In this document: piece after piece, positions 21,126-21,936 of the stretch
Numbering within the stretch: the first letter of the stretch is position 1
Layout of the letters: each line of letters starts with the position of its first letter
UHGV virus genome: UHGV-1381150
DNA length: 23,637 bases
Strand: one strand, 5' to 3'
From: a virus
Made by a program: the position numbers and the translations under genes
Notes under the pieces: model-generated
What the model was told of the DNA's origin: nothing
What the model saw: only the letters and a program-made list of their open reading frames with translations
Database searches by the model: none

Positions 21126-21448
21126 ACTTTCAGGCCCCTCTCATGTAACCAGTGGGCTGCACGCAGCCTGGCGTTTTCCTCACCGGCAAGCAGTGAGCGG
21201 ATAATCCCGACCGCCTCGCTGTCGTCGTCCTTCACCGCGGTATGAAGCGTTATCCCCCGGGCCACGCCACGCTTTATCGTGATGACGCCTTTTTTCTCCA
21301 GAGCACGAAGATGCTCCACCGCTGCATTCACCGAACGGTATCCCAGCATGGTTGCCACCTCCTGATTGGTTGGCGGGAAGCCACGTTCTTTCTGATAAGA
21401 AATCAGCATATCCAGCACCTGCTGCTGGCATTGAGTTAACGTCGTCAT
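21122..21448 (-). CDS. LexA-like N-terminal DNA-binding domain protein, no peptidase domain (start MTTLTQCQQQVLDML)
   Basis: QQVLDMLISYQKERGFPPTNQEVATMLGYRSVNAAVEHLRALEKKGVITI parallels the LexA winged-helix domain; TAATG overlap with the upstream gene. Confidence 0.7.
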   Translation of the reverse strand: MTTLTQCQQQVLDMLISYQKERGFPPTNQEVATMLGYRSVNAAVEHLRALEKKGVITIKRGVARGITLHTAVKDDDSEAVGIIRSLLAGEENARLRAAHWLHERGLKV

Positions 21449-21936
21449 TAAGCCCCCACGTAATTGCCTGGCAGATACCACTCATCACCCGATACAACGC
21501 GCTTGCTGCTTTTCCGTAAACACTGCTCACGACGCGCCAGAAAATTGTTTCGTTCTGGCTGGGAGTGGCTTTCACGGAATGCCGCCATCCACACGGTTGC
21601 AGCACGACGGTATAAGCCCCTGGACTCCAGTTCTTCAGCCTGGCGGGTCAGGCACAAAATCACCCGTGGATCGTTAGTGCCGACATAGAAATTGCGCACA
21701 GGTCTGGTTTCTCGAACTGGTTGTGGTTCCGGTTCCTGCGCTCTCTCAGTCAGGCGCGGGAAATGTCTGCGTGTATCTCCTTCACAACGGTGAGCCACAC
21801 GCCCACTCTGACGTAACTTGCTTGCTGACTGCAGAACGCGCTGCCGTGAGTAACCTGCAAAAGCATCCGCAATGTCTCCGGAAGTACACCCCGGATGGGC
21901 TTCAATGAATTTCTGAACGTCATTTAACAGACTCAT
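21448..21936 (-). CDS. PerC-like transcriptional regulator family protein (162 aa from MSLLNDVQKFIE)
   Basis: C-terminal segment AEELESRGLYRRAATVWMAAF resembles the conserved PerC/Pch core as recalled; family call from memory. Confidence 0.5.
   Translation of the reverse strand: MSLLNDVQKFIEAHPGCTSGDIADAFAGYSRQRVLQSASKLRQSGRVAHRCEGDTRRHFPRLTERAQEPEPQPVRETRPVRNFYVGTNDPRVILCLTRQAEELESRGLYRRAATVWMAAFRESHSQPERNNFLARREQCLRKSSKRVVSGDEWYLPGNYVGA

Follow-up and report, generated by a model that had tools for sequence, protein, structure and literature searches.

PerC-family regulators and the yfdN gene

Members of the PerC family include PerC of enteropathogenic Escherichia coli (EPEC; plasmid pEAF/pMAR2) and the group 1 proteins PchA, PchB and PchC of enterohaemorrhagic E. 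coli (EHEC), all of which have been shown to activate the enterocyte-effacement locus (LEE). Expression of ler goes up at least 4-fold with PchA, PchB or PchC, changes less than 2-fold with PchE and does not respond to PchD (PMC5931665). When over-expressed, PchE is a repressor of csgD and curli and has an effect on flagella (PMC6265319, PMC7369912). LEE1 is repressed by EcCIMP1_025, a PerC-family protein encoded by a phage-inducible chromosomal island (PICI), and was not affected by PerC-like proteins from two further PICIs (PMC11773190). Pch binds AT-rich DNA and relieves the silencing of promoters by H-NS, StpA and Hha; in K-12 W3110, LEE1 promoter activity is low as long as no pch is provided (PMC4764244). 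Here we analyzed a gene of this family in the virus genome UHGV-1381150, using a stretch of 23,637 nt (hereafter the window). The gene, at 21448–21936 on the minus strand, is intact and orthologous to yfdN, which is the PerC-family gene found in lambdoid prophages of the SfV/mEp460/CPS-53 type.

From an ATG at 21936 the open reading frame (ORF) encodes 162 aa followed by a stop codon, which is exactly the span and length given in the initial annotation, where the strand was not stated. The C-terminal string that had been recognized there as resembling PerC, LTRQAEELESRGLYRRAATVWMAAF, is present at residues 96–120. Two in-frame GTG codons could also serve as starts, at 21942 (164 aa) and 21945 (165 aa), and the homologues annotated by PGAP are 164 aa long, corresponding to the GTG at 21942. 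The ATG at 21936 is nevertheless a good start, since a Shine-Dalgarno-like AGGTGG read from the sequence (21942–21947, minus strand) lies 5 nt upstream of it, inside the end of the replication gene.

The protein aligns without gaps to K-12 YfdN (b2357) from the cryptic prophage CPS-53/KpLE1, with 155 of 162 residues identical (96%) and the seven differences mostly in the C-terminal tail. It also matches PHROG 1324 (‘transcriptional activator’) over residues 1–161 (E = 5.7e-77), a full-length similarity across both domains that places it in the YfdN orthologue group. Homologues carry the PGAP name ‘yfdN: PerC family transcriptional regulator,’ the mEp460 homologue has the equivalent label in RefSeq, and yfdN has been termed ‘the K12 unique PerC homologue’ (PMC5931665). 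The family call is thus correct, but it was already present in the databases, where the gene is annotated as yfdN. In comparisons with three relatives, synonymous codon changes prevail over nonsynonymous ones (14:7, 9:4, and 3:2), which suggests purifying selection on yfdN. Two plus-strand ORFs in the same region, 21464–21688 and 21723–21908, were rejected as coding: they gave no significant match to a hidden Markov model (HMM) of the PerC module, the only model with which they were compared (E ≥ 0.33), and the competing minus-strand frame is conserved in thousands of sequences.

Membership of the PerC family is supported from both directions. The Pfam PerC model (PF06069) matches residues 98–151 with 38.3 bits (E = 1.7e-9), above the gathering cut-off of 22.6 bits. 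Reference sequences were taken from annotated records for EPEC PerC (pMAR2) and for PchA, PchD and PchE of O157 Sakai, and in a joint alignment with these four proteins 11 columns are invariant (A100, L103, E104, G107, R110, R111, A112, W116, R129, R136, and C139), with 23–36% identity over the shared part; against PerC and PchA/B/C the shared part is 31–36% identical. A reciprocal HMM built from YfdN-type C-terminal modules only recovers PerC (49.3 bits), PchA (53.1 bits), PchD (40.1 bits), and PchE (54.1 bits), and among the ORFs of the window yfdN is its sole match. The Pfam score, the 11 invariant positions and the reciprocal HMM show that the motif reflects homology and not chance, so the family assignment made in the initial annotation stands.

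One of the 11 positions shows an exception among the YfdN-type proteins, as gp44 of mEp460 (L002:4999-5487) has Phe in place of Cys139; the position is otherwise invariant in the alignment with PerC/Pch and 28 divergent YfdN-type proteins. A weak similarity was also seen to the ANR proteins (AraC negative regulator, Aar), which are small helical regulators of mobile elements and whose likeness to PerC has been remarked on before (PMC11773190). The NCBIfam model ANR_neg_reg (NF033650) matches residues 96–142 with 22.4 bits, below its cut-off of 32 bits, and the protein is therefore not counted as an ANR member. The ANR proteins are also only about 60 aa long and have no DNA-binding domain, unlike the window protein with its predicted winged helix.

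K-12 YfdN, mEp460 gp44 and SfV orf40 are orthologues that share the same upstream replication gene (yfdO in K-12) and the same operon order. Using megablast with the gene alone and a coverage of 80% or more, we found yfdN in 2547 of 5426 complete E. coli genomes (47%), K-12 included. The gene is also found in the Stx2c and Stx2a phages of O157, in mEp460 and in SfV-like phages, and relatives with 66–85% identity occur in Salmonella, Hafnia, and Citrobacter.

Domain architecture of YfdN

The window protein has the helical core and PF06069 in common with PerC and PchA/B/C, and its gene, like theirs, is carried on a mobile element. It differs from them at both ends. PerC (89 aa), PchA (104 aa), PchD (89 aa), and PchE (90 aa) are all single-domain proteins, while the window protein is 162 aa long and has ∼95 additional N-terminal residues that make up a winged helix and a linker. 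At the other end it covers only positions 5–58 of the 90 positions in the PF06069 profile, and residues ∼60–90 of PerC/Pch have no counterpart in it. The suggestion in the initial annotation that the protein resembles PerC/Pch is therefore too narrow when these are taken as single-domain proteins of 89–104 aa that span the whole model: the gene encodes the two-domain YfdN type, with an added winged helix and without the C-terminal third. PchD, PchE and EcCIMP1_025 are like the window protein in being PerC-family members without a proven ler-activating role, but they are again short (89–90 aa) and single-domain.

An AlphaFold2 model of the protein (mean pLDDT, the predicted local distance difference test score, of 77.5) resolves these parts. 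The N-terminal winged-helix domain comprises residues 1–60 (21757–21936, minus strand; pLDDT 84–91), with helices at residues 3–13, 19–25, and 31–44 followed by a β-hairpin at residues 47–60. It is followed by a Pro/Glu-rich linker of residues 61–89 (21670–21756, minus strand), which varies in length among relatives and is gapped in the family alignment; residues 63–84 have a pLDDT below 50 and are modeled as disordered. The PerC module spans residues 90–151 (21484–21669, minus strand) and carries the 11-residue conserved core on three helices, which the model places at residues 90–149. The remaining tail of residues 152–162 (21451–21483, minus strand) contains a family-conserved L-x-G-x-Y/F-x-G motif, in which G157 is near-invariant across 28 divergent members, and stands in place of the C-terminal third of PerC/Pch.

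A Foldseek search of the PDB with the full model matched only winged-helix DNA-binding domains (ArsR/SmtB, MarR, BlaI/MecI) over ∼60 columns with a root-mean-square deviation of 2–3 Å, although with weak E-values (3e-3 or higher). The same search gave nothing for the PerC module, and a search of solved structures with the family sequence profile gave nothing beyond a single match at E = 0.95. The sequence comparisons agree with the winged helix, as the N-terminal halves of several divergent members match the Pfam families Penicillinase_R, MarR_2/MarR, and HTH_24, and the N-terminal domain of the window protein has weak PHROG matches to MarR and Ren-like families (‘Ren-like exclusion protein,’ E = 0.014). 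The protein is thus predicted to consist of two folded modules, a winged helix of the DNA-binding type and a three-helix PerC module with a shape like that of tetratricopeptide repeats (TPR), joined by a disordered linker.

In an exhaustive search of 1.84 billion representative sequences only 99 clusters were found, of which ∼25 are full-length two-domain proteins with 25–47% identity. PF06069 is matched by all 28 divergent YfdN-type representatives and the two-domain architecture is kept at 23–47% identity. With PerC matches in 28 of 28 members and winged-helix families matched by several N-terminal halves, the fusion of the two domains represents an old and stable architecture.

Operon position and proposed role of YfdN

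The initial annotation had placed the gene in the nin region, and it does lie in the equivalent region of this phage, between a replication gene and the Q antiterminator gene (18550–18918). The upstream neighbor (21939–22757, minus strand) is a replication-initiator-like gene with HTH_36/DnaD_N matches in Pfam, and its counterpart in mEp460 is annotated as ‘replication protein.’ Its TGA (21939–21941) ends 2 nt before the ATG of yfdN and overlaps the alternative GTG at 21942. Downstream, the stop codon of yfdN and the ATG of the gene that follows overlap (TAATG), and this second gene encodes a 108-aa protein with a LexA DNA-binding domain only (21122–21448, minus strand; Pfam LexA_DNA_bind, E = 2.9e-19). 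Consensus scans of the minus strand around yfdN showed no promoter-like or terminator-like sites. The GC content of the gene (0.54) is like that of its neighbors (0.52–0.58), while the segment at 17.0–18.8 kb is at 0.36–0.40.

The position next to the initiator is also seen in the comparison record L001, in mEp460 and in K-12, and the slot directly after the replication initiator is kept in five of six distant lineages, with relatives down to 25% identity. In those five lineages yfdN precedes methyltransferase, LexA-domain and RusA genes, and the adjoining initiators are of different types (HTH_36/DnaD_N, Phg_2220_C, and a 353-aa protein with no Pfam match). In the sixth lineage the yfdN relative follows recT. 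The proposal that yfdN is a moron, i.e., an independently expressed gene of lysogenic conversion, therefore has to be given up, given the overlapping or abutting junctions, the lack of promoter and terminator sites in the scans, a base composition like that of the neighbors, and a conserved slot in place of a sporadic presence. To judge from its junctions and the consensus scans, yfdN looks like a fixed gene of the early-right operon and not like a moron expressed in the lysogen. The pchA gene, in contrast, is a late-region gene of prophage Sp4. Short PerC-family genes can adjoin replication functions too, as the Sakai pchE gene (L006:18773-19045, prophage Sp7) directly follows the primase and SSB genes of a small, primase-bearing, satellite-like element.

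Some further observations concern the neighbors of yfdN. In K-12, mEp460 and most of the best-matching records, a Dam-type N6-adenine methyltransferase gene of ∼650 bp (yfdM) sits between yfdN and the LexA-domain gene (L002:4346-4999; L008:8113-8388). In the window this gene is missing at the junction 21446–21450, so that the LexA-domain gene follows yfdN directly; in E. coli genomes, both orders occur commonly. The LexA-domain protein has no peptidase/cleavage domain and its gene is kept beside yfdN in distant relatives. Such a non-cleavable LexA look-alike could occupy SOS boxes during induction. Within the initiator gene, at 22388–22492, there are at least three imperfect direct repeats of GTGAATCTCCTGCAC-like units with spacings of 24 and 42 nt, which encode a repetitive Gly/Ser/Ala-rich stretch of the protein. 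By analogy with lambda O, they may be in-gene origin iterons. Farther upstream, an IS629/IS1203-type element of the IS3 family (23226–23637), 94–100% identical to the copies in O157 Sakai, truncates a Rha-like antirepressor gene (22975–23211), and homology to intact relatives ends at 23228. The early region of the prophage is thus disrupted upstream of the replication gene, which may perturb yfdN expression from the early promoter in the window.

We consider it somewhat better than even (roughly 55%) that YfdN is a DNA-binding regulator of the phage, encoded in the early operon, in which the PerC module acts as in Pch. The identity, architecture and operon position of yfdN are well supported by the comparisons above, and the mechanism can be sketched by analogy. 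Expression of yfdN would occur with the early-right operon on induction or infection, and the winged helix would position YfdN on DNA. The PerC module would then, as in Pch, alter nucleoprotein complexes of the H-NS silencing type or act on another protein partner. The outcome would be a changed transcription of phage genes and possibly of some host genes. An effect on LEE would be possible only in a host that carries LEE, and its direction could not be predicted from membership of the family.

More tentatively, the YfdN-type proteins might be a distinct, winged-helix-tethered class of PerC proteins with a fixed initiator partner and a phage-centered role, LEE activation being a later co-option. 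The partnership with the initiator could then be a feature of SfV/mEp460-type lambdoid phages, with a PerC module that may be TPR-like in shape. The role could be, e.g., to free the induced prophage or its origin region from silencing of the H-NS type, and the activation of LEE by PerC and PchA–C could represent a co-option of the stand-alone module.

Two other roles appear unlikely. In the first, YfdN would be a negative regulator or anti-activator like the ANR proteins, with the PerC module neutralizing a transcription factor or H-NS and a net repression as with EcCIMP1_025. The sub-threshold ANR_neg_reg match would fit this, as would the PerC/ANR similarity and the repression of LEE1 by a PerC-family protein reported in the same study (PMC11773190), and the predicted TPR/MIT-like fold suggests binding to other proteins. 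The ANR score is however below the curated cut-off and the Pfam PerC model fits better, while the predicted winged helix would point to direct DNA binding and not to pure anti-activation.

In the second, which we find just as improbable, YfdN would be an accessory of the replication module, either a partner of the initiator at the phage origin (a positional analog of lambda P) or an exclusion factor like lambda Ren. Consistent with this are the strict adjacency to the initiator with overlapping or abutting codons, whatever the initiator type, a module with no separately annotated helicase-loader gene, the iteron-like repeats inside the upstream gene, and the weak match of the N-terminal domain to the Ren-like exclusion proteins. 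Yet YfdN does not resemble the known helicase loaders, transcription phenotypes are all that is known of the PerC family, one lineage has the gene after recT and not after a replication gene, and in mosaic phage operons little can be concluded from adjacency alone.

Least probable is that YfdN is a prophage-borne virulence regulator activating the LEE1/ler promoter like PerC and PchA–C: although it is a genuine family member with the conserved core, occurs in the Stx2c and Stx2a phages of O157, shares the window with an IS629-type element that is also multi-copy in the O157 Sakai genome, and was thought by Uhlich et al. to be prudent to delete from a K-12 ler::lacZ reporter strain (PMC5931665), ler is activated only by PerC and the group 1 Pch proteins, the PICI proteins are neutral or repressing, the LEE1 promoter is low in W3110 without added pch, and YfdN is unlike the activators at both ends, has no moron organization and is found in nearly half of the complete E. 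coli genomes, with K-12 among them, and in other genera. Among the family members tested, some activate LEE, some repress it and some leave it unaffected, so membership does not predict LEE activation, and the very wide distribution of yfdN argues against a LEE-specific role. In the literature we found no direct experiments on YfdN, only incidental mentions in a glycogen over-expression screen, for a filamentation-inducing fragment of UTI89 and in a nitric-oxide transcriptome, none of which gives a specific function. The virulence-regulating role suggested in the initial annotation is thus unsupported, with mixed published data for the family (PMC5931665, PMC11773190, PMC4764244).

Other features of the window and implications

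A better candidate for a moron is found elsewhere in the window. Between Q and the lysis genes, a pair of genes (15609–17461) runs on the plus strand, unlike the rest of this minus-strand phage. Its first member encodes a 386-aa GmrSD_N/DUF262 protein (PADLOC NsnA, 6e-45; PD-T4-2_A, 5e-27) and the second a 229-aa HEPN protein (MAE_28990/RiboL-PSP), and the region is AT-rich (GC 0.36–0.40). This GmrSD-like/HEPN pair is a candidate for anti-phage defense. YfdN itself gave no match to a defense system in the PADLOC scan. The late regulatory region also contains two methyltransferase genes, 17430–18470 and 13964–15016 (both minus strand), one for a C5-cytosine methylase (Pfam, E = 2.7e-54) and the other for a Type II-like enzyme (PADLOC, 3e-152). 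Both appear to be orphans, with no adjoining nuclease besides the GmrSD-like pair.

Downstream of the LexA-domain gene, the RusA resolvase gene (20735–21125, minus strand) is split into two ORFs by one A at 20924 that the intact gene of L001 lacks. It is probably a frameshift pseudogene, or else the result of a homopolymer sequencing error. The window as a whole was not found in any of the complete E. coli genomes, the best match covering 80% at 97.6% identity. The best whole-window matches in these genomes all stop at 22014, which is also where the homology to K-12 CPS-53 ends, inside the truncated replication gene yfdO. The shared endpoint suggests a recurrent recombination or deletion breakpoint.

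For the annotation of prophages, the case of yfdN means that virulence regulation cannot be read from the label ‘PerC family’ on a gene of a prophage, and keeping this in mind guards against over-interpretation. Of remaining interest are the role of the two-domain YfdN type and the constant location of its gene next to the replication initiator. This initiator-side position, together with the domain fusion, provides a testable lead on the original job of the PerC module for mobile elements.
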